In this document: positions 3,001-20,000 of the stretch, one piece after another
Layout: every line of letters begins with the position of its first letter
Numbering within the stretch: position 1 is the stretch's first letter
DNA from: an uncultured virus (IMG/VR IMGVR_UViG_3300037585_002406)
Taxonomy: Duplodnaviria; Heunggongvirae; Uroviricota; Caudoviricetes; Crassvirales
Reading direction: 5' to 3' (one strand)
DNA: 20,000 nucleotides
IMG/VR virus record: IMGVR_UViG_3300037585_002406
The notes under the pieces: model-generated
The model's input: the letters and a program-made list of their open reading frames with translations, nothing else
Told to the model about the DNA's origin: nothing
Database searches by the model: none
Position numbers and translations under genes: made by a program

Positions 3001-6000
3001 TTATGGACGGTGCTTGGGCTCGTACCCCTTATGTTTTGAGCGGGCCGCTATACACAGGTTCCATAGCTATGCTCCCTATTTATGGTGAAGATACAGACAA
3101 TCTAGGCAGGAGGAGGCCTTATCCAGAGGTAAGACCTTATACAACAACGCTACCGCTTATATGGGTTGGAGGCACTAGGAGCGCTCATATAAAGCGTCTT
3201 AACGACTGGGGAACCGCTAAGTTAAATTGGTTAAAAACATCATTTCCATGGCCTCAGACAGATGTACCGACAGGACCTCATCAGTGGAATGACGGAATGG
3301 GCGGATGGAATAGCTATGGGTTAGACAATAAGCCTTTTCGTCAGCCTAAATGGTATGCAGACGGATGGACTTGGGATGGGACTACTAATACACCTCAGGG
3401 AAGTCTAAGTGATTTAGGCGGTGACTCCGAAGGTGGCACTGTTGCTAGTACGCATAGCAGGTTTGGAAGTGTTGACTATGCGATGACTCACTCACATTTA
3501 GAGGGTCATGCAAGATCTATGTATACTCCAGCGGGGGGTAACTCACAGAATTATTCTTTTAAGTCGTCCGCAACTCACGAATTTGGCGTTGTATATTACG
3601 ATCAAAGAGGTAGACACGGATATGTTAATCATTTAGATTCTGTGTTTGTTGATGGATATGCACCGTCGCAGAGGACTGCAGATGAAAGTACAGACAATGT
3701 ACAGGGTCCTGCACATATTCAGCTGACGTTAAGACACGAGCCACCAGAATGGGCTCATAATTATAAAATCGTATATTCTAAAAATACGAGTGTCTCAGAT
3801 TTTCTACAATACTCTGCGGGCGGGGCATTTACCGCACAGGGGGAGTCTGTAGGTGGAGATCCGTCTAGAATATATGTATCTCTAAATTACCTGCAGGGAC
3901 ACACTATATCATATTCCGACGCTTGGGGCGCTAGGTCCGAAGAAGGAAGCCCTATTCTGTATACACACAGAGAGGGTGATAGGTTAAGGGTTATATCGTA
4001 TATGCTCCCGTCATCGAGCAGTGACTCTCAAGTTCCTACGCGTGTATACCCATACAATTACGATTTTGAGATATCGGGTATGGTAAATTTAGATGAGTCA
4101 GAAAGTAACCCGCTTGGAGGCTATGAGGATGTTGACAACAACCCTGGAGAATATTTTGTAGATGAAAACAAAAAGGGTTTATTCCTGCTTCTTAAAAATA
4201 ATGGGGGTGCCAATGGGTTTAGATACCAGGACGTTAGAGATGAAGCCCACCACTGGGGAGACAACTGCATCATAGAAATATATTCACCTGTAAAGGAATT
4301 GGATTCAGATGACCGCCTTTATTATGAAATAGGTAAGACATATTCTATATTTAGGCAATCAAATGGGAGTAGATGGCATGAGGGTGATTCCTATGACTTC
4401 TCACAATTTGGACAACAAGAGATGCTGGAGGTTATAGGACATGCTGTTATTACACTTACAGAGGGTGATGTGTGGTTTAGGTCGCACGCTGTGAACCTAA
4501 GAGATCACGGTAATGCTGAGGTTACTAACGCTTATCCAGATATTATAGTAAATACAGAAACGGAAGGATCTTCTTCAGATTGGGAAATTACCCAAGCTTC
4601 TGAAGCTAACTTCAAGAGTTATTACCTAGAGGCTCAGATGGCGACAGATTTATTTAAATCCCACGCTATACACATAGGTAGGCCTAATATGATAAAGCAG
4701 GATGCTCAAGAGACGTATAAAGAAGCCAGCGTTATACACTCGGATAGAGATATATTAGATCACGGAAAGGTTTCTTACTCTTCGTTTAATAGGTCAGTAC
4801 CTATAGATAAAGATCTAGACTTAAAGAGCGGTGAAATAAATTATCTAGGCAACTGGGATGACCAATGTGTATTTGTGCAGAAGGATAAATGTGGGTATTT
4901 TGGTATAGACAGAACCATGATATCCGATCTACAGGGTGAGAAGAGTCTTATAGCGTCTAGTAAGTTTATAAATGAACCTCAATATTATCTAGGTAGAGCG
5001 GGTGCAGACGGTAATCCAGAATCTGTGTATGTTCTCGATAACTCTATATATTTTGCGCACAAGTCTTTAGGCAAGGTATTTAAAGCCAGCGGAGGGGGTG
5101 CAGGTGTACAAACGATATCTGACACAAATATGCGCTCGTGGTTTAGGGACACATTCCAAAATGCTATGAATCTGTCTATGATAAACGGTGAAGATGTTCG
5201 TGTTGTAGGTGGGTATGACCCTATGAAACAAGAATATTTGTTAAGTATATTAAACCCTGAAACGCGCGGTTTACTTACAGATCCGTTTATTCCAGATGTA
5301 GAAGTAGTAGATCCAGAAGGAGGTGTGGTGCCAGGTACAGGAGGGCCAGGCGGACCGCCTCCAACATCGGATGTTGTGCCTTACTTTAATATCACTTGGG
5401 GTAATGGCGACAACTTTAAAAGCGATCCACCTACGTGGTTTGTTATGTATAATGAGCCAGGATATTTGACGAATACAACAGGCTTAATCTACTACTTAAA
5501 TATAGAGTTGAATAACTTCTTCGGAAGTATGGGGCTTTGGACTCTATCTCCTGGTCAGGAGCTTAAATTAACTATAGAGCTAAACGGTATAGATACTGTT
5601 AGCTACCAGAATCATGATTTTGCTTATGCGGGTACGGACACAGATACTAGATATGCTCTTGGTAGCTCAACATTTGCAGACAACTACGCATTTGTAGAAG
5701 AAGAAATTCCAGGCAGAAAGTTTGTGTTTACGTTTAATTCAGGCACTAACCAACCAGGTGATGATATACCTGATAATATTCTACTACCTGTAAAGCTTCC
5801 AGTAAATTACGATTTAACGCTTCTAGAGGGTGTAGAACAAGGTAATCTATATCCAAAACCTAATTTCTTAGAGCCTCCTGTTAATGAAGATGTATTTAGA
5901 AATACAGTTATATCGTATCAAATAGATTACAGCGGTATGGATGTTTCTCCCGCATCTTATGGACAGGGTGCTCCTCTTGCTGGGCTTATACAGTGGAGAC

Positions 6001-6548
6001 TTTTAAATGAGGATGGAGGAGGTGATGGGGGTAATGGTAATGGAGGCAACGGTAATGGAGGAAATGGTAATGGGGGTAATGGTGTTGCTCATGAATTTTG
6101 TAACTACCCTATGCTTGTTGACGAGAATGGTCATATAACTCACTCTTCAATCCTAGCGGCTTACATTCAGGTAACCGATATGTTAGACAGCGGAGAAATA
6201 ATGCAGGCAGATGCATTAACTATGGTTCCAAATCTAGCTCAATCTGTGCCTCCAATGATAACCATGACCGATCAGATTTTTGCGCTGGCACAATGGAGCG
6301 AAGAAGGTTATGGTCCTGACAACCCTCTAGTGTGTTCAGTTAATGGAGGTAATGGAGGTGCTAGATTAGGCTGTACTGATCCTACTGCAATAAACTACGA
6401 CCCTACTGCAACGGTTGATGACGGCAGCTGTATATATGACAATGGTTCAGAAGATGATGCGGGCGGTGAGTCAGATACACCACCACCACCACCACCAACA
6501 ACAAGAAAACGTAGATCAGGATCAGGACCACAAATACAATCATATTAA
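3..6548 (+). CDS. Large virion tail protein, tail stabilisation/muzzle-like (crAss-like stabilisation protein, P22 gp10-related), 5'-partial, with a modular C-terminal extension
   Basis: Frame is open from nt 3 (VYTNTNEFEKHDRIVDF...) through the GTG at 84 to TAA 6546-6548, so the gene starts upstream of the window. Motif blocks I recall from Bacteroidota phage tail stabilisation proteins: LYFTDNVNEPRKIN, FDNVPRKAQAQ..SNRLMYGNY, SFKSSATHEFGVVYYDQRGR, PPEWAHNYKIV, IIEIYSP, LYYEIG, GDVWFR, NPESV...IYF, VVGGYDPMKQEYLLSI. Confidence 0.75.
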   Translation, partial: VYTNTNEFEKHDRIVDFLDYDGNEGLKVDFEKDAILYFTDNVNEPRKINIYRALLEKDDLFTTDEYTGDNALELTDFICACPKVPLDRISFEFDADLSRSTNNFAAAPGFQFAYQNIYIDKLETAISAYSPAAFPPSIVNRGAAQTTDLLSHNVCLLKIPEVGPEVERIRILARYENSANFFEIDEVSNIESETANWDLETRTYKFYNDRVASGVSPQEVKKTFDNVPRKAQAQTAISNRLMYGNYLEQFDNVDTKCDAKVVYKPRPQDYLDLVIRATPSIEPGSFGQNKGVGFEIDTKEIPRKIYAGTVINIVIEYEPDRNFHLYQAHNVRRWRENGISDYTYHQNRHMGPNIANATGWPRYPLIENNNRYRPQGESWDGEAEQGEYSQPWGSSANNGTHDESQAHYMTRGDNDGTDRWVNSRYSGANFLEEYGYRYFGWNFGVGAEGTEEGADWIESSSSNGNNNNPRWSDTSFTALTAGSSVEADAPEFSARYGTSAGNPLILQGCKLQFEVKFTVVQDELWNGDDLVAATIVEALAGANGEAVGVVASELIEATGLQPGTMGTGIFSFQSKIQIDVENDVTKVYRHEYDLGLNYEAEEGHLTSHSFEFPTIIPGDTYSNLIVGVANDGGATGLSDYINGVLVTAEDVGNTLRRGYAEALRHQRTAPPAGAFIINKASIDFYIETIEDDDMDPIYEGYGGFRKKARIAISKIEVEEEDVLTCVRRAEGNSPWWLLNKDSIIAMQSYFADLDSTSTMSGLDTPGDVANKFYVSNSVWGGPTNHTWYKAFKPKHDINEMVESAGDTSGNFYEYIQVMRNCFGRLMFADGQRSLYKPHSQIFNTPEETVDGYENMYRPVLGKSRFRFSLMDGEGGPGAAFAGGNSAYDKYDLGKYGSLAGRLDFNFKISDVKANIYDFGAQSWTQGHHTVHAVMGGTVIDPYGGPGASVGDSTNLANFIDYSYGGYTSTTNWDAVAQYSLVTDEAWEDELGEPGENWSTVMDGAWARTPYVLSGPLYTGSIAMLPIYGEDTDNLGRRRPYPEVRPYTTTLPLIWVGGTRSAHIKRLNDWGTAKLNWLKTSFPWPQTDVPTGPHQWNDGMGGWNSYGLDNKPFRQPKWYADGWTWDGTTNTPQGSLSDLGGDSEGGTVASTHSRFGSVDYAMTHSHLEGHARSMYTPAGGNSQNYSFKSSATHEFGVVYYDQRGRHGYVNHLDSVFVDGYAPSQRTADESTDNVQGPAHIQLTLRHEPPEWAHNYKIVYSKNTSVSDFLQYSAGGAFTAQGESVGGDPSRIYVSLNYLQGHTISYSDAWGARSEEGSPILYTHREGDRLRVISYMLPSSSSDSQVPTRVYPYNYDFEISGMVNLDESESNPLGGYEDVDNNPGEYFVDENKKGLFLLLKNNGGANGFRYQDVRDEAHHWGDNCIIEIYSPVKELDSDDRLYYEIGKTYSIFRQSNGSRWHEGDSYDFSQFGQQEMLEVIGHAVITLTEGDVWFRSHAVNLRDHGNAEVTNAYPDIIVNTETEGSSSDWEITQASEANFKSYYLEAQMATDLFKSHAIHIGRPNMIKQDAQETYKEASVIHSDRDILDHGKVSYSSFNRSVPIDKDLDLKSGEINYLGNWDDQCVFVQKDKCGYFGIDRTMISDLQGEKSLIASSKFINEPQYYLGRAGADGNPESVYVLDNSIYFAHKSLGKVFKASGGGAGVQTISDTNMRSWFRDTFQNAMNLSMINGEDVRVVGGYDPMKQEYLLSILNPETRGLLTDPFIPDVEVVDPEGGVVPGTGGPGGPPPTSDVVPYFNITWGNGDNFKSDPPTWFVMYNEPGYLTNTTGLIYYLNIELNNFFGSMGLWTLSPGQELKLTIELNGIDTVSYQNHDFAYAGTDTDTRYALGSSTFADNYAFVEEEIPGRKFVFTFNSGTNQPGDDIPDNILLPVKLPVNYDLTLLEGVEQGNLYPKPNFLEPPVNEDVFRNTVISYQIDYSGMDVSPASYGQGAPLAGLIQWRLLNEDGGGDGGNGNGGNGNGGNGNGGNGVAHEFCNYPMLVDENGHITHSSILAAYIQVTDMLDSGEIMQADALTMVPNLAQSVPPMITMTDQIFALAQWSEEGYGPDNPLVCSVNGGNGGARLGCTDPTAINYDPTATVDDGSCIYDNGSEDDAGGESDTPPPPPPTTRKRRSGSGPQIQSY
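6027..6083 (+). repeat. Coding tandem repeat (GGNGN)x~4, 15-nt unit, flexible linker
   Basis: gggggtaatggtaat ggaggcaacggtaat ggaggaaatggtaat gggggtaatggt encodes GGNGNGGNGNGGNGNGGNG. Confidence 0.9.
6369..6437 (+). other. GCTD-type Cys motif (GCTDPTAINYDPTATVDDGSCIY) near the C-terminus of ORF1
   Basis: Matches the GCTDxxAxNYDxxAxxDDGSC repeat I recall from secreted/surface proteins of marine Bacteroidota; single copy here. Confidence 0.75.
6480..6497 (+). repeat. (CCA)6 microsatellite encoding a poly-Pro linker
   Basis: Perfect CCA x6 in the ORF1 frame (T-PPPPPP-TT). Confidence 0.9.
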
Positions 6549-6550
6549 TT

Positions 6551-7783
6551 ATGCCGTTTCAACCATTTACAGGAAATATATGCGACTATCCAACGATAAA
6601 CGGATACGATGCTGCTACGGACACCTATACTGGATTTTTTGATATACAGGGCGGCGGTGGTCCAGCCTTGATGTATCTATATAGCGCGTGGTTTCAAAGC
6701 TCTATGTCAATTATGCAGGGCGCTACTCTTGAAGAAATTTCATACCAGTACCCAATATGGGCTAACAGCACTTTTGCTCAAACATCTCCTGGGAGTGGAT
6801 GGGGTCCAGTAGGCGGTACGGGTCAGTTTGAGGATGACGGAAGGATCGTTGTTCAGGATTTGGTTATTTGGCTTATACAGCAGAGCGGAGGATCTGTCTC
6901 TTTTGAGGATAGCAGCTATTCGACATGGACGGTTACTGGAGGTTCTATTCAACTTCCGCCAGATTGTATAAATTTTTATGAGCATGGTGGTGCACACTTT
7001 GGTTCTTTTCAATCCCCTAAAGATTATCACCCTACTGTAGCGTGGCTCGGATATATGAATGTAATGGGTCAGCCTATGACATGCGATCCAAACATAATCA
7101 ATCCACCGCCTCCGCCACCTGACGAGCCACAGGGATGGACAGGCAACTTGTGTGACTATCCAGGTATTATAGATGAATTTGGAAACATAACTCAAGAAAG
7201 TGTTGTTGCTGGATGGGCTGCATGGAATTATAATACTGGGGTTGATCAAATTTTAGCTACTCATAATTTTCCAGACATGGATGGAGACGAAATTATAAGT
7301 ATGGAAGACTTCACCGCTTTACTGACTGAGTTTGGTGTGACGTGGCCAATGAATTGCACGGTAGGACCACCTATAGGTCCAGGAGACCCTACAGGGCCTT
7401 CAGACCCTACAGGACCTACAACGGGGCTGGGTGGGGGTAGATTGCCTGCAGGTTCTACAAAGAGTAAAAAGGGTAGAGTTGCTAAGGAAAGCACACCACC
7501 ACCAAGAGAAAGGTATGAGGGTGTGAGGGAGAACCTAAGAACAACAGGAGGGGAGTATATTCTACCAAACGGTCAGATTTATGTAGGTAATTACCATATA
7601 CACCCTACTATGGGGGCTATGGTTGGTGCAAAGCATACATCTGCACCTCACGAGAAGCTGCTTCCATACACCCCTGCAAAGGCTGTAATACCGCCAAAAT
7701 CAAAGAAAACAGAAGACTCGCCACAATCAAGATCAAAGAGGCGGGGAATGAGTGGCGGTGGATCAACATCAAATACCTATTAA
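6551..7783 (+). CDS. Hypothetical modular virion-associated protein (410 aa): two TGNxCDYP modules, EF-hand/dockerin-like loop, Pro/Gly linkers, His-rich C-terminal domain
   Basis: ATG 2 nt after the ORF1 stop; TAA 7781-7783. Internal repeat TGNICDYP/TGNLCDYP; DMDGDEIISMED loop; PPPPPP and GP(G/S)DPT linkers; YHIH...H....H cluster. Confidence 0.8.
   Translation: MPFQPFTGNICDYPTINGYDAATDTYTGFFDIQGGGGPALMYLYSAWFQSSMSIMQGATLEEISYQYPIWANSTFAQTSPGSGWGPVGGTGQFEDDGRIVVQDLVIWLIQQSGGSVSFEDSSYSTWTVTGGSIQLPPDCINFYEHGGAHFGSFQSPKDYHPTVAWLGYMNVMGQPMTCDPNIINPPPPPPDEPQGWTGNLCDYPGIIDEFGNITQESVVAGWAAWNYNTGVDQILATHNFPDMDGDEIISMEDFTALLTEFGVTWPMNCTVGPPIGPGDPTGPSDPTGPTTGLGGGRLPAGSTKSKKGRVAKESTPPPRERYEGVRENLRTTGGEYILPNGQIYVGNYHIHPTMGAMVGAKHTSAPHEKLLPYTPAKAVIPPKSKKTEDSPQSRSKRRGMSGGGSTSNTY
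7376..7423 (+). repeat. Short coding tandem repeat GP(G/S)DPT, 18-nt unit
   Basis: GPGDPT-GPSDPT-GPTT; DNA core gaccctacagg occurs at 7385 and 7403. Confidence 0.8.
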
Positions 7784-7785
7784 TC

Positions 7786-8841
7786 ATGATATATCAAGGA
7801 GAAACAGTAGCATTTTCTACGAAATCAAATGTATGGAAGACGAGATATTCGTTTAACCCTACGTGCTATATGGATATGGATGATGATTTTTTATCCAGCG
7901 CACCTGTTGATGAGGAAGATACGAGACTTGCATGGAGGCATGATATATCTGGGGTGTATAATCGCTTTTACGAAAGTTCTTATCCGTCGACTATGCGTGT
8001 TGCATCCAATCAAAACCCATCATCTACAAAGGCCTTTAAAGCTATATCTCTAGAGACGAACACACAGGGCTGGACAGCTAGGGTGCGGACGAATATAGAT
8101 AGGGGCGGTGATTTTTCACTTCAGCAGGATGGCATGATTAGATCTTTCGAAAGTAAAGAGGGTAATCAGTATTCAGCCATGCCTAGGAATTCACAAGGTG
8201 CTGGTAACTCAACATCAAATATTGTTTATGTCGGGTTGGTTAGATTGGGGGATCTACTATTTGGTGTAGAAGAGGGTGATGAGTTGGTAGACGTTATTGA
8301 CGCAACTGAAGCATTAACGCAGCCATATGTAGAGTATGAGGTACCGCTTCAGAATGTACCCGCAGTGTCTATTACCCCAGCTCAGGAATCAAAGCTTTAC
8401 TTTTCAAGTCCTGGTCAGGGCAATTTTTTAACAAGTGTTGCGGCCACAGCCGTACCCCAATATAATATTTACTCTGTATTTAGTTCTCAGGGCTATAATG
8501 AAAATGCCATGTCTATGGTGGGTTATAACGGAGCCAACAACAGTTTAATTTTTAGAAGTCCATATGTTGAACTTGGATTAGCAAACCAGATTCTACACAT
8601 GGCTACTATTTGGATGCTCGTCACAAGTAACATATATGGTGCTGCAGTATCTGAAGGTGATGTAGATTATGATTTACAATTACCTATATATATGATGACG
8701 AATCCTCGTATAAACGGGGATCTTATGAGGGGTCCATACGCAACCATCGACCTTACATTACCATCTGCTGGTATGGCTTTTGAGCTCCATTCTATCAACA
8801 TAGACTACGAAAACACCAAGCTTGATGGTAGTTTGGGATAA
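7786..8841 (+). CDS. Tail protein (351 aa), resembles the C-terminal portion of the tail stabilisation protein
   Basis: ATG 2 nt after the previous stop. Motifs TVAFS...WKTRYSFNP, NRFY, NQNPSSTKAFKAISLE, KEGNQYS, GDLMRGPYA.IDL, FELHSIN resemble, from memory, the C-terminal end of single-chain stabilisation proteins. Confidence 0.65.
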   Translation: MIYQGETVAFSTKSNVWKTRYSFNPTCYMDMDDDFLSSAPVDEEDTRLAWRHDISGVYNRFYESSYPSTMRVASNQNPSSTKAFKAISLETNTQGWTARVRTNIDRGGDFSLQQDGMIRSFESKEGNQYSAMPRNSQGAGNSTSNIVYVGLVRLGDLLFGVEEGDELVDVIDATEALTQPYVEYEVPLQNVPAVSITPAQESKLYFSSPGQGNFLTSVAATAVPQYNIYSVFSSQGYNENAMSMVGYNGANNSLIFRSPYVELGLANQILHMATIWMLVTSNIYGAAVSEGDVDYDLQLPIYMMTNPRINGDLMRGPYATIDLTLPSAGMAFELHSINIDYENTKLDGSLG

Positions 8842-8862: not shown

Positions 8863-10020
8863 ATGAGTAACGGATTAACTTCAGGACAAAAAACTACGGA
8901 GGCTTTAGCAATTGCTAATATGAATCCAGATCAGCGAGAAGCTTATCAAGATCAATTAACTAAGCAGGGTCGTCAAAGTGCTCTACTATCTGGTGGAGCT
9001 GGATTGTACGACGTTATCTCTGGTAAAAAGAAACAAAAAGATGCAGAGGGCGAAATAGAGACTCTGGGTGCAGAAGCGGATAAGATAAGAGAGCAGATGA
9101 AGAAGTCCAAGGTTCCAGGGGCTACAGACCCTGAGACCGTAGCTGCTGCTGTACGTAACGCAGCTATACTGGGTAGCGGAAAGCAAAGAGACGATTCATC
9201 TGAGCTCGCAGCCGCTAAGATGGCTATGGAGTCTGGTGCAGACCCCAGTCAGATACAGTCTGCTCTAAGTAAAGCTACGCAGGAAAAGGACGAAGCTGAG
9301 GAGGCTGAAAAGTCTGGGTTAATGAGAGAGGGGTTAGGTTCTGCCAGAGAGCAGGCAATGCAGCAATATCAGAAAGATATGGCTGATATGGGTATGGATT
9401 ATGATGAGAGTCAGGCGGCCCTACAACAAGCTCAGCAAGAAAGCCTACTTGGCCAACAACAGGCACAGGCGGGTACAAGGAATTTAATAAGCGGTGCATC
9501 GCAACTGCTTGCAAACCCTAGATCTGAGGAACAGCAGGCTGAGGCTAAAGAAAAGAGACAGGACTTCTTTGATAAGGCTAAGGACTTTTTTCAAACTGAC
9601 AGAGGGGAACTTCGTGAGGATAAAAAGTTTGCTGAAGAACAAGGTCTAGACCCAACAGAATTTGTAGAGGAGGAGGGTTTTGAGTTTCCTGACGAGGATC
9701 CCCCTGTGGAGGATTTGTCCGAAGGTTTTGCTAAAGGAGGTAGAGTTGTGCAGAAAACACCAGGTGCGTTTAAGCACGATGACGGAGACGGAGTGTATGA
9801 AAAGGGTGAGAATGAGCTTATATTGATGGCACAGAAGTCGGGCGGACTAGTGGATACAGGGATACGCCAGACTGGCGGTGAGTTTGTTATAAACCCTAAG
9901 CAGGCCAGGGGAATGGAGAAGGCATACGAGAAGGTAAAGAAAAAGAAAAACCCAAGTAAAGCAGACCTTATGTCTCTATTCAATGCTGTGCGTTTTCTTG
10001 ACGAGCCTCAATTTGATTAA
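8863..10020 (+). CDS. Putative internal virion/ejection (cargo) protein, 385 aa
   Basis: Ala/Gln/Glu-rich helical composition, short Gly-rich hydrophobic patch (ALLSGGAGLYDVISG), acidic linker, then a C-terminal block FAKGGRV...TGGEFVINP. Position directly after the tail genes. Function inferred. Confidence 0.6.
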   Translation: MSNGLTSGQKTTEALAIANMNPDQREAYQDQLTKQGRQSALLSGGAGLYDVISGKKKQKDAEGEIETLGAEADKIREQMKKSKVPGATDPETVAAAVRNAAILGSGKQRDDSSELAAAKMAMESGADPSQIQSALSKATQEKDEAEEAEKSGLMREGLGSAREQAMQQYQKDMADMGMDYDESQAALQQAQQESLLGQQQAQAGTRNLISGASQLLANPRSEEQQAEAKEKRQDFFDKAKDFFQTDRGELREDKKFAEEQGLDPTEFVEEEGFEFPDEDPPVEDLSEGFAKGGRVVQKTPGAFKHDDGDGVYEKGENELILMAQKSGGLVDTGIRQTGGEFVINPKQARGMEKAYEKVKKKKNPSKADLMSLFNAVRFLDEPQFD

Positions 10021-10022
10021 AT

Positions 10023-11615
10023 ATGGAAAATAAATATTACGACCACTTAAAGCCTCAACTGCCTCAACAGAATTTTTCTGATGTTGTAAATCAACAATTA
10101 CAGATTGTACAGCAGCAGCAACAACAGAGGCTTGCTCAGCAGATGCTTGTAGAGAAGGAGCAGCGTAAAATGCAGGACGCTCAGCAACAAGAACTGTTAG
10201 GATTTGATGTGTCTAAGTTCTCAGACGTTGATAAACAGGTGTTTGGAGCTAAAAGAGACTGGTTGGCAGATAGAATAAATAACTTCCACTATACGGGTAG
10301 AAATAGATCTGATTTCGTAACCGACGTAACCGCCTTAAAAACATCATTTGAGACGCTAGAACAGCACCATAAGAATACAAACAAAGAAAGAGACACTTTA
10401 GAAGGGTATGTATCTGGTACACAGCCTTGGACAGATAAGGTGATGCAGTTAGGAGATAACAAAGAATCTCTAGATTACAAAGTTCAGCAGTGGAATAACT
10501 CAGGCGTAGAACCCGATTCTATAGAGATAGATCCAAACACTGGTGATGCATATGCATACTATGTAGATATTAACGGAACGAGGATGCAGGGAGAGGACGG
10601 AAAGGATATGTACGGTTTGGTGTCTCAATCGCCTACCAGAGGATCTAAAGAGCATTTTGCCCCTACGGTATCACCTTACGCAAACCTATTGCCTGGTGAA
10701 TTCTCTAAAGATTATGCGTCAGCAGCCACTAGACTGAAGAAAAATGAGAACCTTACATACGAAGAAAAGCTAGACACGCTTAGATCTTGGGTTACAGCGG
10801 ATGCTATGAAGAACCAAGCTGTTGGTGCAACAGCCAGATCTCAATTCGTACAAAATTACGGTGAGTCGGTTCATGAGTCAGTATTACAAGACGATCAAAC
10901 TAAAAATGGACAAGAACCTGGATACGTATCTATGGATGTACGTGAGTATGTTGATGAGACAATGAGATTTTTAGAGGGTAACCTTATGGATGCGCCTGAC
11001 GATGATGATGATTCAGCACCGTCTATATTCCCATCGTCTGTAGAGTTTAAGGTTGATCAATTCCAAAAACCAGGACAAGGTTTTGTAGGACCGATTATGC
11101 CAGGATCTGAAGGGGATGACGAAAAATTTGGTAGCGGAATAAGCAGTCTTATGGTTCCTAAATCTGGAGTAGGTAAGTCTAGCATTACGGTAGAGAAGTC
11201 GTATATACCTCAGAATAATACAGATCCAAGGGCTAATGAAGTAAGCGATCAATACAGAGTGTTAGGCGTTGCTATGGATAACAGCGATGTTCCTAAATTA
11301 TTTGTACGTGCTGAAATGTATTTACAGAAAAACATTAATGATTTAGATCCGACGTATGCGGCTACTCTGCAGGGTTATGATATAAATATTGATGGAAAAA
11401 CTGTCGACAAGAAAGAAGCGGTTAATATCGTAGTTGATGCATACACTCCAGATGGAGAGACAAATCAAGAATATATCAGTATTTTAGCGCAGTTAGGGTA
11501 TGCTTCTGGTGTAAAGGATGGCGAAAGGAATGAAGCAATAAAGAAGGGTGTAGAGGTTCTAAGAACCTTTAATGATAGTGAAGCGCAGATATTTGCATCC
11601 CAACCAAGGCCATAA
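10023..11615 (+). CDS. Hypothetical protein, probable internal virion/ejection protein, 530 aa
   Basis: Long ORF 2 nt after the previous TAA; Gln-rich coiled-coil-like N-terminus; lies between a cargo-like gene and the giant polyvalent gene. No catalytic motif recognised. Confidence 0.6.
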   Translation: MENKYYDHLKPQLPQQNFSDVVNQQLQIVQQQQQQRLAQQMLVEKEQRKMQDAQQQELLGFDVSKFSDVDKQVFGAKRDWLADRINNFHYTGRNRSDFVTDVTALKTSFETLEQHHKNTNKERDTLEGYVSGTQPWTDKVMQLGDNKESLDYKVQQWNNSGVEPDSIEIDPNTGDAYAYYVDINGTRMQGEDGKDMYGLVSQSPTRGSKEHFAPTVSPYANLLPGEFSKDYASAATRLKKNENLTYEEKLDTLRSWVTADAMKNQAVGATARSQFVQNYGESVHESVLQDDQTKNGQEPGYVSMDVREYVDETMRFLEGNLMDAPDDDDDSAPSIFPSSVEFKVDQFQKPGQGFVGPIMPGSEGDDEKFGSGISSLMVPKSGVGKSSITVEKSYIPQNNTDPRANEVSDQYRVLGVAMDNSDVPKLFVRAEMYLQKNINDLDPTYAATLQGYDINIDGKTVDKKEAVNIVVDAYTPDGETNQEYISILAQLGYASGVKDGERNEAIKKGVEVLRTFNDSEAQIFASQPRP

Positions 11616-11616
11616 T

Positions 11617-11631
11617 TCACTATATTTGTAA
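11617..11631 (+). promoter_or_regulatory. Putative Bacteroidota-type -7 promoter element (TAnnTTTG) within TCACTATATTTGTAA
   Basis: TATATTTG at 11621-11628 in the 28-nt gap before ATG 11644, followed by an A-rich leader; near copy of 8844-8858. Confidence 0.55.
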
Positions 11632-11643
11632 AAAATAACGCAT

Positions 11644-11871
11644 ATGGCGAGTAAACTTTCACAAAACGATGGCCAGTTCATCGACGATCTGATTAGCGAG
11701 AAGCAAACTTTTTTTTTTAAAGGGAAACCCAAAGGGCGTTTCAATGCAAGAAGGAGGCGAAGTAGATCCGCCTCTTTTGGATTCTCAATCAGCTGGAACT
11801 TCGTCGGGGTTTACTTTACTACCTCAAACTCCGAATTTAGAATCGGATATACCAGAGCAAACAGATCCTGA
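11644..11871 (+). CDS. Short leader ORF (75 aa); probably the out-of-frame N-terminus of the giant protein
   Basis: ATG follows the promoter-like motif and A-rich leader. The first ~24 codons look protein-like (MASKLSQNDGQFIDDLISEKQTFF). After the T10 tract it overlaps the giant ORF, becomes Arg/Ser-rich and ends in TGA, whereas the five upstream genes all end in TAA. Confidence 0.5.
   Translation: MASKLSQNDGQFIDDLISEKQTFFFKGKPKGRFNARRRRSRSASFGFSISWNFVGVYFTTSNSEFRIGYTRANRS
11709..11718 (+). other. T10 homopolymer, candidate slippage/frameshift site
   Basis: ACT TTT TTT TTT AAA GGG AAA CCC; removing one T fuses the leader ORF to the giant ORF. Confidence 0.55.
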
Positions 11872-14800
11872 AGGATTTGAATTTGAAACAACAAAGTATC
11901 TATGGGAAAACTTAGACCCATCATTCGGTTATGATAATTACATAACTGATCGCTATAGTTCAGACAACGACATATTAAATGAGGTACCGCCTCTGCTACC
12001 TACTGCTGAAGGTTTAGATGAATGGATGACGGAAAACGCTCCAGAAGAAATAGCTCCTCCAGATCAACTTTCTGAAGTGGAGCAGATGTCTCCGTTCTTG
12101 GTTAACATATACAACAGTAATGTTGAAGCGTATAAAAACAATTTAAACGCTCGTAATGAAGCGGTAAATAACTTTAATGAAAGCGTAGTAAACCCTTACA
12201 ATGATTGGGTTGAGGATTATGACTCTGCAAGACAGAGAGTTATGAGGCAAGACCTTCAGGGTAGAAAAGCCTTAGAGGACATAAGGAGAAAGTCAACTCC
12301 AGAAAGCTATAATGAAATGATCAATAACCCTACTTTTGGGGTCTTAGATTTAGGGTTATTAAAGCTAAGAGAGAAGTCTGGGGTTTCTTTTAAAAACCCT
12401 GATGGAATTCTTATGACTAGAGGTGATGTTTTATTGTCTGATTTATATGAAGGTAGTGCTGATGAGTTAATTGCTATATTAGATGAAGAGGCAGCTTCTT
12501 TTAGAGAGCAGGGGCTTACTGAAATTGATGGTCAGATTGAACAACAAAGAGAGGAGGTTGAAAATAAAAAACCTAAAGGAGGGAAGCCTTACTTTGGTGC
12601 TCAAGCAAAATTAAAAGCTCTAGAAAAACAAAAAGAGGAATATTTAGCTGACGAGAGTCGCGGTAGAGATATAGCTGCACGTAAGTATTTTGAAAACCAC
12701 GTTCTTGAAAACTTAGCTATGAGTGAGGATGAATGGATAAATGAAACGCTAGTATCTAAGGGTGTTGCCCCAGGATCAGGAGTAAGCACAGAGGAGCTTG
12801 GTTTTGGAACATACAAAGAGTACATACAGAATCTTGAAGCTAAGATATATGGCGATCTCCTGTATAATAAAGAAGCTTATGACTTTTCTGAAGATTTAGG
12901 CATGGATGGTTTCAAGCTGATACTTGACGATGATGTAGCTGTGGGTGATAGAAATAGTAGATGGACTGACGCAGCATTAAGTTGGAGACAGGGGGTTGTT
13001 CAGCTTGAAGGTATGATAGACGCTACAAACACTGCATTTCAAGAGGTGGAAGAACTCTCTCTTGTGGATCAGCAAGCTTTGCTTGATTCTGATGCCAGCT
13101 GGTGGAACAGATTAGCATCTAGCGCTTATGCTATAGCTTCACCATCCAGCCCATCATTAAAAGCTATTGATCAAGCTGTAGGGGCTGTTAGATATTTTAC
13201 TGGTGAGGAAAGTGAAGAAACCGAATCTTTAAGAAACGCGTTGGCTGAAAGAGATGAGGAAAGAAATCAAAAGATGTCCGAACTACAACAGCAATCTACT
13301 CAATATGCTGTTAATGCAAAGCAGTTAGATTTATTTGGATCTGATGCTATACTCAACGAAAATATACAGGTGGAAAATTTATCCGCTATGTACAATCAAG
13401 CTAAGAGGGATGTAGTGTTTAATGAAGAGATACAACCAGCAATAGCCTCATCACCTACATCTCTAGCTGTTATGAGTGTTGCTGTAGCTACAGCACCTTT
13501 TACGGGGGGTAATAGTTTTGTTGCTGCAGGTGCCTCTGGTTTGACTATGGGCACTCTAGTTATGAATAGAACGTATTACGATAGTTTTACCAACCCTATA
13601 TACTACGAAAAAAATGATGACGGAAGCACAAACTGGGATGCTCCTAAAATATCAGAGGTTGAGAGACACGGTATGTCTTTCCTTCACGGAACGGCTGAAG
13701 GTCTTGGAGAGGGTGTAGGCACATATGTTACGTTTGGCATAGGTAAGTTTGCTCTCACTCCAGGTAGATTTAGCCCGTACAGCATGTTTAAGGGGGCTCC
13801 TAGCTTAACGGGTGCTACGCAATATTCTGCAGGTAGAAAAGCTTTAGACTACGGATTTGGAATGGCAACAAGTATGGGTATAGGAGCTGGTGAAGAGTTT
13901 ATAGCTGAAGGGGTTACTGGCGTTTCTCAGATGGCTATAGATTCTTATTTTTCTGGAGAGAAGTATACACGAGCTCAGTATGCTGAAAGGTTTATGAAGG
14001 ATGGTAAAATAGGTGCGTGGGCTGGTCTGGGCATGGGTGGTGGAGCTTATACCATAGGATCTGGTAAAGCTTTGTACGAGAAGTATTACGCACCAGAGGT
14101 ATTTAACTCAAGGGTTGTAGATGCTTATGACAATCAACTTACAAGTAGTGGATTCTTTTTCGACGGAGTAAGTAAGGTTAAATTAAAAAACCTTACAAAG
14201 CAGTTAGATATAATAAGAAGAGGCAACGCTGCTGGGACAAACTTAAAAGATCTTACAACAGAACAGAAGGAGGCTATAGATAAAGCAACAGAGTTGAGTG
14301 AGGAATTAAACACCGCTCAGGTTAGAGACCAGACGCTTTTAAAAGCATTAAGAGAGAACGGAAGAGGAGACTTAGTTGCGGAGCTTGTTGCTATGGATAA
14401 TAGGCTTTTATTCTTAAAGTCTATGCTTGCTGAATATTCGCAAAATGAAGATGGTCAGTGGATGGATGCTGATGGTAACCTTACAGACGATCCTACAAAG
14501 ATGGAGCTGTACCAAATGAGCCTTGAACTTACAGATACGAAGAAGAAAGAGATGGGGGCTGAGATGACTTCCATACTTTTAGAAGTGGAGAAGATAAGAG
14601 ACGCTGCGGAAAACAATGCTGTACATTCACCAGACTATACCCCTAAAGACAGAGCTAAAGGTGTGGGTAATTGGAGAGATAATGCTGATCCTAATCAATA
14701 CAATGAGGTTTCATTTAACGAGGAAACAAGTGAAGTAGTAGGCGACGTACCTAACGAGTTTTCAGACATTATAAATAGATATGCAGAAGCTGCAAAGGGG

Positions 14801-17800
14801 ACCGCTAAAATCATAGTGCATAAAACAGAAAAATCATTTAGATTGGTGTCAGGATCGGATAGCTCAGATCTTGCTCAATACAGAGAAGCAAATCCAGAAG
14901 AGAGAAAAAACAAATATGTAGATGAGATACATGTTTACGCAGGAGAAAAGCAGACTAAACAAGGTTTAGAAAAAAACTTAATACATGAGTATGGTCACGT
15001 TGCACTTAGAGACATTGTAGCAGACACAGAGGCAAGAGAGAGACTTGTGTCTGAAATATTAAAAATAGATAATGCAAAGGTACAGTCTATGGTAGAGGAT
15101 GTAAGACAAACTTACCTAGACTATGAAAAAGATGCTCTTGAGACAGAGGTGATAGTAAACTTCATGGACCAAGTTGCTACCTTAGAGTTAAGTCAGTCTG
15201 ATATAACCCAAGGATTTGAAGGGTGGGGTTTAGATATTATGCGTCAGGCTGGTAAGCTTGGACTAACAAGCAATGAAGCGGTGCTTCGTGATAAGGACTC
15301 TGTTGTAAAACTTGCTTCTAAGTTTACAAACTTTGTAAGACAAAATGGAGGAATCACAGGTATAAGAACACCTAAGCAAGCTGAGGCTCTTAGGACGCAG
15401 AGACAGGCTGAAACTGCAATTGAGCAGGCAGATAGTTCTGATGCGGCTGGTATGGCGGCAAGAGAATTTAACTACCTTAAAAACACAAAGATCTACTACA
15501 AAGAAGTTACATCTAGAGAAGGTAGAGATGGTATAACTAGAGTTACCTCTGTAAGAGAAAAGACTGCAGACCTTAGCGATTACAATCATTTTAGAAACCT
15601 ATATGCTAAGATGACAGGTAACGGTGCTGCTCCTAGCAGAATGGAAGATATATACTTTGTGAAGGACGGTAGAAGATTTGATGTAAAGCCTCCAAGGCCT
15701 AAGACAGATAGACGGGGAAATATCTTACAGATGGAGGTTCCTAGGAGGATGACCTACAACGAAAGAAAACTTGCCAGAGCTCAAGAAACGCAGGAGTATA
15801 CGGATATGCTGGCTCAAGAGAGGGCGGACCTTATGACGGAGGTTGGTGATCTTTGGAAAAATAATGATAAGAACATTAGCTCTTATACCAACTTGTCTGA
15901 CTTTAGCCCTACAGTAAGAGGGATGTTTGATGTAGGTCCTAGATCTAGAACTATAGAGCAAATAAATTCAGACATAGAAGATCAAGTTATTTCAAAGCAA
16001 AACATACAAGCTCTTATAGACTCCGAGATAACAGAAGATGATCTTAAGGCTCTAGCAGGTAGATTCACAAAAATTGGCAGGAAGTCAAACCCTAGCATAT
16101 TCAATATGAGTGGGTTGCGTAAAGAAGAAACACATGAGCAGAAAGCGGACCGCCTCACAAACGATATGGAAGGTAAAGGTTCTTTATGGCAACTACTACC
16201 AAAAGACTCACCATCTTATCAGAAACGTATACCTGATCTAAGATTAGCTACGCCTGCTGAACTGCAGTATGCATCAGACAGATTTGATAGAATAGAGGAT
16301 GAGCCTTTAGACGGTGACTTGCTTGATATCGACGCATCAGAACCTACAGGCTTAGCTGCAAGATCTATAAATTATGACAAGAGAAAAGCTATATTTAAAG
16401 GTGTTACTGCTGAAAACTTTAATGATTTTGTAAACGGTAAAATAAAATCTGGTAGGATACAGAGCTTTGAAGACCTTAAGAATTTAATGAGAGAGGCTAA
16501 CATGCTTGACTCTACAGGAAAACTTCAAATGACTATTCACAATGTAGACAGAACAATGGTTGGTCCTGGATCACTGCCCGTACATGGAGATGTTTTTAAT
16601 TTCCATTTATCTGGTGGTCCTTTAGGAAACTCTGTTGGAGCTATGCAGGGCGCTAATGTTGGTCACAATACCACAACAAGACAGTCTAGTATTAACATTA
16701 CAACTTATGCAGATGTCGCAAAAAAAACCAACAAAACATATTTATTAGGACTTAGATTGCTTACAGAAAAAAATAGTCTTGGTAATCCTCAAGTATTTAA
16801 GTTAGCTGTAAACTATACTTTAGAGTATTTAAAAAATGAAAAAACACCAGAGTCCACACAAGATTATCTAGTTGAAAGTTTAAATCGTTTCTTTAATAAT
16901 AAATCTTACGTAGCTGGTTCAAGAAGCACTAAAAAAGGATCTGAACAAAAGGTAAGCTTACTAGGTAAAAAGTTTCAACCTTTCGGTGGGGTGGATGGCG
17001 TGACTATGCAAACTGGATCTATGCATATAAACTCTAGGCAAGGGTTATTTAATTTCTTAGAAGAAATATCAAACGCATCTATAAATGAGATTACATCTAA
17101 TGTCAGCTTTGAAGATAGAACTGCTCTATCAACAAGATTATTTAGGACTAAGGTGGGACTTGGAGCTCAACCTGGATTTGTAAATCAAGAGCAGTTTTTA
17201 GATGCGGTAAATCAAAGTGAGTATAAAGGTGTAGAAGCAGGAAGTGTTGTTAATGCAACACTAATGGACGTTAACAATACAAACTTACATGGAATTAAAG
17301 GCGTATCAGGTCACTTACAGGGTGTTGGAGCTGATGCTCTTGCAGAGTCTACATCATACGATTTTGGGGTTACTGGACATACAACAACATTTCATTTTGA
17401 AAAACCTCTGTCTAATGAAGCTACCAATAAGATGGCTGCTAGACAGCAAACTAGCGGTGAATACTTAGCTTCACGTAGATTGCCAGGAAGGGTGTATGCA
17501 GAGGGTAACTCAACGTGGGAGAAGTCAACACCTACGGCTTACGGAGCTCAGATGCAGAGACTTGCTATAAAATTACAGGATAGATTTAGCGATGTTTTAT
17601 TGCTACAGCAGGACGTGGAGGAGTTTAGAGGTAGTAAAGTTCCTGAGTCTCAAGATTTTGAGATGGCTATGGATCTGATGTATGGTAAAGTACGTACAGA
17701 TTTAGAGGCTTTGGAGGGTAGATTAGAGCTTATAAACTTTGCTATGGAAGAGGCTGGATTGACGGCTGAGGATGTATCAGATTATTTGTACGCTAAGCAC

Positions 17801-20000
17801 GCAGAGGAGCGTAATAAAAAGATAGAGAAGACTAGGCCTGAAATGAAGAGCGGTTCTGGTATTACAACAGATGAAGCTGCCGAAATAATTGAAGAGTTGG
17901 AAAACCGTCAGATGGTAGCTATTTCTGAACTTATTTATGAGGTTATAGGTAATACGCGTAAGACGTTGGCTGAGTCTGGACTTGAAACTTCCGAGAGAGT
18001 AGAGGCTTGGGAGAACATGTACGAAAACTATGTACCTCTTAGTGGCTTGGCTGTAGATGAAGTGCAGGATGATCATAATTCATACCCCACAGGCGGTGCT
18101 GGTATGGCGATCTACGGTAAAACTACAAAGGCAGCAAAGGGTAGAGCAAGCAAGACAGGTATAAATCTTATAGCAAATGTTATAATGCAGAACGCTATGG
18201 TTAACCAGAGGGCTCGTAAGAACCAGGCTATGATGTCTCTATACAATCAGGTTAAAAGCAATCCAAATGAAGAGGTTTGGAATATATTCTCTGTAAAAAC
18301 CCCTATGAAGAAGACTGATGAGAAGGGTAATATAGTGGACATGAATGCATTTGAAATGAAGGCAGACAGGCGTATGGTTCCTATTAGGGTTAACGGAGAA
18401 CAACACTTTATCTTCTTTAAGAAGTCAGATTATGCCGATGCTTTAAACGGAATGACAGAGGAAAAATTAAACACTATTTTAAGAACTTTGTCAGGACCTA
18501 TGACGCTTATGCGTAACGCATTTACACAATACAACCCATCGTTCTTCGTAGGCAACTTCTTCAGAGATATACACGGAGCAGCATTCAACGCCTTAGCAGA
18601 AATAGAAAGAGAAGGCGGTATACTTCAGGGTTACGATATAAACAGTAAAGACTTTACAAAGTCTATGATTAAAAACTCATTTGTGGTTCTTGGTCACTTA
18701 CTTAAAGACAGCGCCTTTAGTAGAGAGATGAGCCCGCAGATGAGCGAATACGTTGCTGAATGGGAGGCTGCAGGAGGTAGAACAGGGTTTTCATACTCTG
18801 AAAGTATTAACAATGTTATAGACAACCTAAAATCTCAAGCAGAAACTCCAGGTAAAATGAAAGCGGCCAGACAGTACGCTTTTTCAAAACCAGGACAATT
18901 CTTCCAGTATGTAGCTGGTGTAAATGAGGCTTTTGAGAATAGTATAAGATTGGCAGCGTATATAGAAGCCAGAAAGGCAGGAGTAACTAAAAATAGAGCT
19001 GCACAGCTATCAAAGAACATAACTATAAACTTCAACAAATCTGGAGAATTAGGACCGTCTCTTAATCAGGTGTTCTTATTCTTTAACGCTGCCGTACAGG
19101 GTGTTACTAGATTTGGCAGAACATTCCAGTCATTAAAAGCAGAATTACCAAATAGTCCAAGCGAAACTACCAGTTGGAAAAATAGAGTTTCAAGCGCACA
19201 GAAGCTAGGAGCTGGCATGGTATTACTTTCAGGACTTCAGACGTTACTGAATATGGCTTTATCTGGTAGAGATGAAGAAGACGGAGAATTGTTCTACAAT
19301 AAAATAAAAGAGTATGAAAAAGAAAGAGGGTTTATCATAATATATGGATCAGGTCGTAATGACTACATATCTATACCTCTAGGATACGGATATAACATGT
19401 TTAATGTTGTGGGGTCGATGCTTGCAGAAGTTTCTGCAGGTGCTAGAGAATTTGATGATGCACTTATGAATATGGCTCTTGCTTCACACAGTGCATTCTC
19501 TCCTATTGCTATGGGTAACTCATCAACTATAGGGGGCGCAGCTGTAAAGTCTATAACACCTACTGTTCTAAAGGCTCCTCTTGATGCGTTTGGTTTTAAC
19601 GAAACATACCATGGGGGTAAGGTTTATCAAGAGCAATATCCGTTTGGTGCAGAGACTCCAGCTTCTACTCTTTCTTTCAGATCTCCAGATTTAGTGCAGG
19701 AGTTATTTGTAGGGTTACATGAAATGACTGGAGGTACAGAAAATATTGACGGAACTATTGAAATTAACCCAGACCCTTATTACTACATACTTCAGTCGTA
19801 CTGGGGAGGTGCTGGTGATTTTGTTATGGATATAGCAAGTCTTACTAGAAGCGGTTACGCTACAGCTAAGAGAAAATACGATATACTTTCTAAAGCTAGA
19901 ACAGATGAAGATTTTGTAGATGCTTTATTTAAGACACCTCAAGAAGACAGACCAATTATAAAGTTTAATGATGTACCTGTTATTAAAACAATATACGGTA
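11744..20000 (+). CDS. Giant polyvalent internal virion/ejection protein (>2750 aa, 3'-partial) with a zincin-like metallopeptidase motif and an LPD38-like C-terminal region
   Basis: Frame opens after TGA 11690-11692; first ATG 11744 (MQEGGEVDPP...). No stop in the stretches I translated, and the track lists no closed + ORF here, consistent with run-off at the window end. HEYGH at 14984-14998. C-terminal motifs LQDRF, YLYAKHAEERN (17783), YVPL (18029), TQYNPSFFVGNFFRD (18524), FENSIRLAAY, ITINFNKSG, FLFFNAAVQG, IPLGYG (19373) are as I recall from LPD38-bearing phage proteins. Confidence 0.8.
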   Translation, partial: MQEGGEVDPPLLDSQSAGTSSGFTLLPQTPNLESDIPEQTDPEGFEFETTKYLWENLDPSFGYDNYITDRYSSDNDILNEVPPLLPTAEGLDEWMTENAPEEIAPPDQLSEVEQMSPFLVNIYNSNVEAYKNNLNARNEAVNNFNESVVNPYNDWVEDYDSARQRVMRQDLQGRKALEDIRRKSTPESYNEMINNPTFGVLDLGLLKLREKSGVSFKNPDGILMTRGDVLLSDLYEGSADELIAILDEEAASFREQGLTEIDGQIEQQREEVENKKPKGGKPYFGAQAKLKALEKQKEEYLADESRGRDIAARKYFENHVLENLAMSEDEWINETLVSKGVAPGSGVSTEELGFGTYKEYIQNLEAKIYGDLLYNKEAYDFSEDLGMDGFKLILDDDVAVGDRNSRWTDAALSWRQGVVQLEGMIDATNTAFQEVEELSLVDQQALLDSDASWWNRLASSAYAIASPSSPSLKAIDQAVGAVRYFTGEESEETESLRNALAERDEERNQKMSELQQQSTQYAVNAKQLDLFGSDAILNENIQVENLSAMYNQAKRDVVFNEEIQPAIASSPTSLAVMSVAVATAPFTGGNSFVAAGASGLTMGTLVMNRTYYDSFTNPIYYEKNDDGSTNWDAPKISEVERHGMSFLHGTAEGLGEGVGTYVTFGIGKFALTPGRFSPYSMFKGAPSLTGATQYSAGRKALDYGFGMATSMGIGAGEEFIAEGVTGVSQMAIDSYFSGEKYTRAQYAERFMKDGKIGAWAGLGMGGGAYTIGSGKALYEKYYAPEVFNSRVVDAYDNQLTSSGFFFDGVSKVKLKNLTKQLDIIRRGNAAGTNLKDLTTEQKEAIDKATELSEELNTAQVRDQTLLKALRENGRGDLVAELVAMDNRLLFLKSMLAEYSQNEDGQWMDADGNLTDDPTKMELYQMSLELTDTKKKEMGAEMTSILLEVEKIRDAAENNAVHSPDYTPKDRAKGVGNWRDNADPNQYNEVSFNEETSEVVGDVPNEFSDIINRYAEAAKGTAKIIVHKTEKSFRLVSGSDSSDLAQYREANPEERKNKYVDEIHVYAGEKQTKQGLEKNLIHEYGHVALRDIVADTEARERLVSEILKIDNAKVQSMVEDVRQTYLDYEKDALETEVIVNFMDQVATLELSQSDITQGFEGWGLDIMRQAGKLGLTSNEAVLRDKDSVVKLASKFTNFVRQNGGITGIRTPKQAEALRTQRQAETAIEQADSSDAAGMAAREFNYLKNTKIYYKEVTSREGRDGITRVTSVREKTADLSDYNHFRNLYAKMTGNGAAPSRMEDIYFVKDGRRFDVKPPRPKTDRRGNILQMEVPRRMTYNERKLARAQETQEYTDMLAQERADLMTEVGDLWKNNDKNISSYTNLSDFSPTVRGMFDVGPRSRTIEQINSDIEDQVISKQNIQALIDSEITEDDLKALAGRFTKIGRKSNPSIFNMSGLRKEETHEQKADRLTNDMEGKGSLWQLLPKDSPSYQKRIPDLRLATPAELQYASDRFDRIEDEPLDGDLLDIDASEPTGLAARSINYDKRKAIFKGVTAENFNDFVNGKIKSGRIQSFEDLKNLMREANMLDSTGKLQMTIHNVDRTMVGPGSLPVHGDVFNFHLSGGPLGNSVGAMQGANVGHNTTTRQSSINITTYADVAKKTNKTYLLGLRLLTEKNSLGNPQVFKLAVNYTLEYLKNEKTPESTQDYLVESLNRFFNNKSYVAGSRSTKKGSEQKVSLLGKKFQPFGGVDGVTMQTGSMHINSRQGLFNFLEEISNASINEITSNVSFEDRTALSTRLFRTKVGLGAQPGFVNQEQFLDAVNQSEYKGVEAGSVVNATLMDVNNTNLHGIKGVSGHLQGVGADALAESTSYDFGVTGHTTTFHFEKPLSNEATNKMAARQQTSGEYLASRRLPGRVYAEGNSTWEKSTPTAYGAQMQRLAIKLQDRFSDVLLLQQDVEEFRGSKVPESQDFEMAMDLMYGKVRTDLEALEGRLELINFAMEEAGLTAEDVSDYLYAKHAEERNKKIEKTRPEMKSGSGITTDEAAEIIEELENRQMVAISELIYEVIGNTRKTLAESGLETSERVEAWENMYENYVPLSGLAVDEVQDDHNSYPTGGAGMAIYGKTTKAAKGRASKTGINLIANVIMQNAMVNQRARKNQAMMSLYNQVKSNPNEEVWNIFSVKTPMKKTDEKGNIVDMNAFEMKADRRMVPIRVNGEQHFIFFKKSDYADALNGMTEEKLNTILRTLSGPMTLMRNAFTQYNPSFFVGNFFRDIHGAAFNALAEIEREGGILQGYDINSKDFTKSMIKNSFVVLGHLLKDSAFSREMSPQMSEYVAEWEAAGGRTGFSYSESINNVIDNLKSQAETPGKMKAARQYAFSKPGQFFQYVAGVNEAFENSIRLAAYIEARKAGVTKNRAAQLSKNITINFNKSGELGPSLNQVFLFFNAAVQGVTRFGRTFQSLKAELPNSPSETTSWKNRVSSAQKLGAGMVLLSGLQTLLNMALSGRDEEDGELFYNKIKEYEKERGFIIIYGSGRNDYISIPLGYGYNMFNVVGSMLAEVSAGAREFDDALMNMALASHSAFSPIAMGNSSTIGGAAVKSITPTVLKAPLDAFGFNETYHGGKVYQEQYPFGAETPASTLSFRSPDLVQELFVGLHEMTGGTENIDGTIEINPDPYYYILQSYWGGAGDFVMDIASLTRSGYATAKRKYDILSKARTDEDFVDALFKTPQEDRPIIKFNDVPVIKTIYG

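Follow-up and report, generated by a model that had tools for sequence, protein, structure and literature searches.

Frameshifts that set the ratio between two products are familiar in phages, those of the Mu-type tail-chaperone genes being of this kind. Known recoding in phages is largely ribosomal and lies in tail-chaperone or capsid genes; in lambda G/GT, and in the capsid extensions of T7/T3 and Listeria phages, it sets a ratio of a major short product to a minor longer one for virion assembly (accessible sections of PMC5009743). Transcriptional slippage has been described in dnaX of Thermus thermophilus and in mxiE, spa13, spa33 and mxiA of Shigella, where a coding run of 9–10 A or T nucleotides leads to mRNAs of varied length (accessible sections of PMC5009743 and PMC6260861). 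As presented there, slippage of this type yields two proteins with a common N-terminus and requires no stimulator.

The same outcome is predicted from DNA for the locus analysed here, which carries a coding run of ten T at the start of a giant gene. However, dnaX and mxiE are cellular genes, whereas the run here stands at the extreme 5′ end of a phage structural gene; the large product would be the slipped one, needing a −1/+2 change; and among the phage relatives the default product moves between three frames. In contrast to lambda G/GT and the capsid types, a 21-codon leader would here switch between an overlapping beta-type tail and a cargo-type protein of ~2900 aa. No published description of the T10 site was found in titles and abstract openings; the original Cellulophaga, elemo and Panino genome papers and their supplements were outside the scope of this search and could mention split ORFs. 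The accessible text of PMC8776804 mentions neither frameshift nor slippage, that of PMC10172136 mentions no frameshift, and the sole match in that of PMC7886860 concerns split RNAP genes. Transcriptional slippage and ratio-setting phage frameshifts are thus both already known; their pairing at the start of a cargo-type giant gene whose default frame switches between lineages was not found in the literature.

The locus and its gene order

The window, i.e. the whole 20,000-nt stretch of DNA that was analysed, is the end of an incomplete 65.5-kb phage contig and was found in marine metagenomes. Its capsid (24–32%) and portal (about 30%) proteins are closest to those of Flavobacteriia podophages, namely Maribacter phage Panino, Elemovirus, Pervagoviridae and Pachyviridae. 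A GTDB scan with the capsid protein returned three MAG contigs and named no credible host. The features preceding the leader are as follows.

7786–8841, + strand: gene with a muzzle C-terminal domain (crAss_MUZ_C match)
8863–10020 and 10023–11615, + strand: two genes in cargo position, by gene order
11621–11628, + strand: TATATTTG, promoter-like motif 5′ of the leader ATG

The order of muzzle, two cargo-position genes and giant corresponds to that of the crAss001 muzzle (gp44) and cargo genes gp45, gp46 and gp47 described in the accessible part of PMC10172136, and the crAss muzzle C-terminal domain is shared as well. No sequence similarity was detected between the two cargo-position genes and crAss001 gp45/gp46, and, unlike in the window, the A/T runs of crAss001 gp45, 46, 47, 49 and 50 all stay below 8 nt. 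The giant protein of the window carries an LPD38 domain and a likeness to proteins of Stx-type phages, in contrast to the RNA-polymerase-associated crAss001 gp47, to which it has no phmmer match. It matches PHROG 616/14770/10691, and its C-terminal third is ~32% identical to giant LPD5-annotated proteins of Stx-type phages (344 phage records). Neither the giant nor the upstream protein matched a solved structure. From the crAss001 synteny, the LPD38 domain and the MS/MS annotation of the positional equivalent in phi18:3, we infer that the giant is an ejected cargo protein, in agreement with the "ejection" label it had been given.

The motif TATATTTG, which we take to resemble the Bacteroidota sigma −7 element TAnnTTTG, had been pointed out before ATG 11644 in the preliminary description and is present there in all 37 distinct loci (see below). 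It occurs at 11 sites in the 65.5-kb contig, all on the + (structural gene) strand and 7 with an ATG within 18 nt, which makes it a candidate late promoter. No copy lies directly before ATG 11744.

Three other observations were made in this region. The muzzle/tail-tip region (window 3–7783) occupies an ORF of 2325 aa, one of 410 aa and, separately, the crAss_MUZ_C ORF; according to the gene calls, one relative (L005) lacks the middle, 410-aa ORF. The motif hydrophobic-x-x-G-G (as FAKGG or MQEGG) turns up repeatedly in the cargo-position genes (window 8863–10020 and 11744–11764) and again in the C1:16638 gene, and is possibly a packaging or processing signal. Lastly, a second run, A10 at C1:18233–18242 (outside the window), falls within a gene for a 781-aa protein that is rich in Gly, Ala and Pro and has repeated xxGG motifs; stops are found 5–6 codons off in both shifted frames, so that a slip there would truncate the product.

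The T10 run and the frames around it

The run and the frames that meet at it are these.

11644–11708, + strand: shared leader of 21 codons, the common N-terminus of both proposed products; predicted acidic amphipathic helix
11644–11871, + strand: short default ORF of 75 aa (the leader is followed by FFF, a basic linker and three predicted beta strands)
11693–19999, + strand: giant frame, at least 2769 codons, +1 to the leader, running off the contig end
11708–11718, + strand: putative slip site C-T10, read xCT TTT TTT TTT in the leader frame
11718–11720, + strand: TAA in the −1 frame; with one base inserted, translation would end here in a dead 25-aa product
11744–11746, + strand: ATG from which the giant could be annotated; unlikely to be its main start
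near 19295–19861, + strand: LPD38 domain within the giant frame

The T10 run (11709–11718) had been singled out as the longest homopolymer, and this was borne out over the whole window: the next longest is A8, and among T-runs there are five of T6 and nothing longer except the single T10. The frames also read as first described. From ATG 11644 through T10 the ORF encodes 75 aa and ends at 11871; translation with one added T stops after 25 aa; and the giant frame opens at 11693 (after TGA 11690), 16 nt 5′ of T10, and is +1 to the leader.

Exact-pattern scans of viral contigs around T10 returned no loci and then one unrelated locus (L004), and the N-terminal 500 aa of the giant, used as a query, returned none. 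The flanks diverge too fast for such searches, and relatives were therefore gathered through the upstream gene, using an alignment of 49/57 homologues as the query and drawing loci from viral and metagenome collections. This gave 87 sequences (86 loci plus the window), 86 of which match the upstream gene and one of which is unrelated. Fifty were usable, the window included; of the 36 left out, 32 end within the upstream gene and 4 have <200 nt downstream (one of the latter, L027, still shows a T-run). The usable loci include duplicate assemblies and reduce to 37 distinct leaders. Clustered by the C-terminal part of the upstream protein, the 50 fall into 27 groups at 90%, 18 at 70% and 11 at 60% identity.

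A C followed by exactly ten T, in the same phase (phase 2, the first T being the wobble base of an xCT codon), is present in 50/50 loci, with the giant frame +1 to the leader in every one; the leader is 14–28 codons long in the relatives. Related contigs thus bear out the proposal that an out-of-frame leader with a slippery run would be conserved before the giant gene, and no run-length variant occurs among these consensus sequences. The residue before the run varies (S/T/A/P) and its letters CT are invariant, the codon being TCT in 26, ACT in 6, GCT in 3 and CCT in 2 of the distinct loci. Moreover, all 111 Phe codons within the run are TTT (37 distinct loci), whereas elsewhere in the short ORF TTC is in the majority (20/32 before the run and 103/149 after it, 36 aligned leaders). 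The nucleotide conservation of the run therefore exceeds what the protein needs. Lys or Arg is invariably encoded directly after the run (AAA 24, AGA 10, CGG 2, AGG 1), and the −1 frame meets a stop at once in 35 of the 37, remaining open for 11 codons in the other two.

The run length was also compared with Logan contigs. Those crossing T10 with ample flank (X1, X2, X6 record 25 and X19 record 5) contain no indel. X1 and X2 are from possible source studies; the other two come from separate studies, X6 record 25 having no differences from the window and X19 record 5, from another study, having 22 substitutions and no gaps (1 difference in 11554–11856 and 21 in 11857–12100). Diverged contigs from the 8 sequencing runs examined align over 11613–11733 and are unlike the window beyond. 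No run-length indel at T10 was seen in the contigs of these 8 runs, which are DNA contigs and would hide rare variants. The T10 run is real and conserved, and is no assembly error.

The giant frame is open to the end of the locus or for >2800 codons in 48 of the 50 loci, and the complete giants are about 2860–2935 codons long (>3300 in L005). In L023 and L029 it breaks 118 and 255 codons downstream, which look like a chimera and a one-base error, respectively. The L029 break, ~250 codons past T10, is a shift at a short A-run; the giant frame of the near-identical L028 is open, and the break is probably an assembly error.

Upstream of the run the giant frame is closed within 5–22 codons in the relatives. 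Downstream of it, an ATG is found at codon 5–9 in 22 of the 37 distinct loci; in the other 15 there is none within 50 codons, and the first lies at codon 54–196. Six of the 37 lack any ATG, GTG or TTG within 45 codons after the run, and Phe or Leu takes the place of Met in the MQEGG-like xxGG motif of L086 and L063. Between the stop of the short ORF and the first ATG, L031 and L059 are identical at 24 of 26 residues with 10 synonymous changes, and L084 and L059 keep 24 of 26 with 3, distant pairs being less clear; a TTG is present within that stretch in all three loci, which leaves the test supportive and short of decisive. With its frame +1 to the leader, closed upstream and lacking a conserved start, the giant appears reachable only via a frame change at the run.

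The short product and the relatives with A-runs

In the relatives the short products are 52–80 aa long and follow a common plan: an acidic helix, then FFF and a basic linker, and finally three strands with a conserved Gly/aromatic pattern. Six of the aligned members have cleanly lost roughly a strand with its turn. In the window the predicted strands cover residues 44–70 (nt 11773–11853). AlphaFold2 gave a helix at 7–20 (low pLDDT) and strands at 44–49, 53–59 and 64–70, with pLDDT 74–79 for the strands and 60.7 overall. As this pattern could be a shadow of the Ser/Asp-rich linker in the giant, the synonymous codons of the giant frame were randomised. The median open length of the short frame is 46 codons, where the null gives a median of 8 (p<0.05 for 31/37 loci, which are not independent). 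Ser is encoded by the rare codon TCG in 155/332 cases in the overlap compared with 272/3921 elsewhere, and divergence in close pairs is 65/1480 in the overlap and 741/4574 downstream. Among 180 changes in 12 disjoint close pairs, 65 are synonymous in the short frame and 53 in the giant, with ~24% expected for each, though transitions inflate both counts. A full-library profile search with the short protein returned 19 representatives at 50% identity, all of the same type; it belongs to no PHROG family, and has no phage tblastn match and no Foldseek viral match at E <= 0.001. Judged by these sequence comparisons, the short frame is held open by selection and its 75-aa product is a conserved protein. 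The preliminary view of this ORF as a leader peptide therefore stands as far as the shared leader goes; it is no mere leader, since the default product is itself conserved.

Runs were also found in the GenBank relatives, which comprise members of Pachyviridae, Pervagoviridae and Elemovirus, Panino and one uncultured phage. An A9–A11 run lies at the start of the syntenic giant in 9/9, a count that includes four Pachyviridae that are close kin and the closely related phi38:1 and Calle_1. It sits 32–65 codons into the gene, in other phases than T10, and no second A/T run in any of the nine 12–41 kb regions fetched reaches 9. A short frame encoding a basic, aromatic and Gly-rich peptide trails the giant by one base in all nine, the same offset as in the window, and in 5 of 6 tested this frame is open for longer than expected. 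The default frame differs. In elemoE, phi38:1 and Calle_1 (A10) and MW202828 (A11) the giant is in frame with the leader, and one base must be added to reach the short peptide. The A9 phages (Panino, phi18:3, phi19:3, phi46:3 and phi13:2) have a leader that enters the third frame, from which the giant is +1 and the short peptide −1 or +2. The A10 of phi38:1 stands at record position 67520 and the A9 of phi18:3 at 65506. Both products would thus need a shift from one A9 site, and a polymerase making a spread of lengths would supply both.

These phages resemble the window in having a run at the start of the syntenic giant and a short frame one base behind; they differ in using A-runs and other default frames, and in giants and short peptides without detectable homology. 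No significant similarity was found between the giants of the cultured phages and that of the window, and their short peptides scored at best 7.6 bits against the clade profile (controls, 7.2). The T10 clade and the cultured phages are linked by position only.

In GenBank the A9 phages are annotated with a small ORF and a giant from an internal start, Panino without the leader, and no frameshift is annotated in the features fetched for the relatives. The positional equivalent of the giant in phi18:3, gp123, was annotated from virion MS/MS. The preceding small ORF, gp122 (L092:19310–19621), consists of the leader of the giant and a third-frame tail after A9 (L092:19507–19515). The same leader arrangement is seen in the Pachyviridae L093, L095 and L096 and in Panino (L088), the annotated giant starts being internal. 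In Panino the leader ATG (L088:31571) is unannotated and a minus-strand ORF is called over the leader. In phi46:3 (L095:10439–16958) the giant is split into gp120 and gp121, unlike in phi18:3, phi19:3 and phi13:2.

Mechanism, alternatives and meaning

Programmed recoding at the T10 run, as put forward in the preliminary description, is strongly supported; on the sequence evidence we regard it as very likely, and the alternatives offered with it (a sequencing error and a start at ATG 11744) both fail. That the recoding is transcriptional slippage at the invariant C-T10, giving a short and a giant protein from one leader, is the probable reading, held with less assurance. The host RNA polymerase, starting at the TATATTTG promoter ~80 nt upstream, would slip in the run. 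Messages that keep U10 would encode the conserved short protein of 75 aa, and in a smaller share that has lost one U (or gained two) the 21-codon leader would be joined to the giant virion protein, which is probably ejected. Deletion may be the main route. Relatives would reach the same frame pair through A9–A11 runs and insertions.

This reading is consistent with what is known of bacterial RNA polymerase, in which 9-nt A/T runs slip efficiently and the hybrid is 9–10 bp (accessible sections of PMC5009743). Ten T would then be the shortest run that lets a 9-bp all-U hybrid advance by one base without a mismatch. In the accessible sections of PMC6260861, whose slippage data are from E. coli and not from Bacteroidota, RNA polymerase brought a +1 reporter back into frame through deletion at ~10% when the run was T8, and the A-runs tested showed no such rescue; this fits the use of T where a deletion and of A where an insertion is needed. 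However, the rule is loose, as deletion predominates on A11 in vitro (cited in the same source).

The main competitor is a programmed ribosomal frameshift (−2 or +1) on UUU UUU UUU, which would give the same two products from a uniform mRNA and which we consider unlikely, though a good deal less so than the other alternatives. A ribosomal signal would also require the fixed phase seen in 50/50 loci, U UUU UUU UUU in the leader frame permits perfect tandem −2 re-pairing, a −2 shift on U6A with stimulators is documented (accessible part of PMC3458567), and a Lys or Arg codon always follows the run. Yet no stimulator is conserved among RNA folds without pseudoknots: downstream folding reaches z < −2 in 5/37 loci against 4/36 control windows, and upstream in 0/37. 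The hairpin suggested at 11724–11742 is accordingly present in its letters and is no conserved fold. An upstream stem-loop in the nascent RNA, considered separately, was dropped on the upstream count. A +1 shift of the RF2/PA-X type fits poorly with a post-run codon that is AAA in 24/37 and is neither a stop nor consistently rare, a tandem −2 shift needs neither the invariant wobble T nor the 5′ C, and the positional equivalents use A-runs in three configurations, one of which would need two different shifts. Runs in three phases and of both bases, with no conserved RNA structure, favour slippage by RNA polymerase over ribosomal frameshifting.

Production of the giant mainly from an internal start (ATG 11744, or a later or non-canonical one), with T10 serving the short gene or acting as a pause or terminator, is improbable. 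Gene callers and GenBank do annotate the giants in this way, and an ATG lies 5–9 codons past the run in 22/37 distinct loci, but the other 15 have none within 50 codons (first at codon 54–196), which removes ATG 11744 as a general start. Moreover, no stop is tolerated in the giant frame across the run or 5′ of any ATG, protein selection leaves the all-TTT coding unexplained, the U-run has no hairpin 5′ of it as an intrinsic terminator would, and four relatives read straight from the leader into the giant. Mononucleotide runs as long as this one are prone to mutation, and replication slippage could in principle yield a few T9 genomes from which the giant is supplied to a burst or population, rare variants being concealed in contigs. 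Such phase variation, raised in the preliminary description, is more improbable still: the run has no length variant in 50/50 loci and no indel in the contigs of 8 sequencing runs, and the five A9 phages would need two lengths for two products. Finally, a homopolymer assembly error with a true T9 has nothing in its favour beyond the general risk of such runs and can practically be dismissed, given T10 in 50/50 loci and in independent studies and a T10 frame that encodes a conserved protein.

To return to slippage by the polymerase, conservation of the 75-aa product suggests that the site sets a ratio between two products, which in the T10 clade would be many short proteins to few giants. The earlier suggestion that recoding sets a low copy number for the giant is kept as a ratio; as a general purpose it falls, the giant being the default product in 4/9 GenBank relatives. 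Through their shared leader, the short protein and the giant may be sent to one location during virion assembly. The weakest step is the role of the short protein, which we tentatively suggest could be a small virion-assembly or ejection partner of the giant.

A broader proposal, in our judgement evenly balanced, is that a large group of marine Bacteroidota podophages (cultured Pachyviridae, Pervagoviridae and Elemovirus among them) may depend on a single slippery gene for their ejection machinery. Slippage by the host RNA polymerase would switch a shared leader between a hidden small beta-sheet protein and a giant cargo, and lineages would have re-tuned the ratio through the base, the run length and the default frame, to the point where the giant has no in-frame gene. 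The finding exposes an unannotated small conserved protein, and the three natural configurations are a ready series for studying the effect of run base and length on a protein ratio. Cultured Cellulophaga and Flavobacterium phages offer a way to test the idea. If it is true, the N-termini of annotated giants, including that of the MS/MS-annotated phi18:3 gp123, would be corrected, and a polymerase-slippage switch before a giant cargo-type gene would be a new use of slippage.
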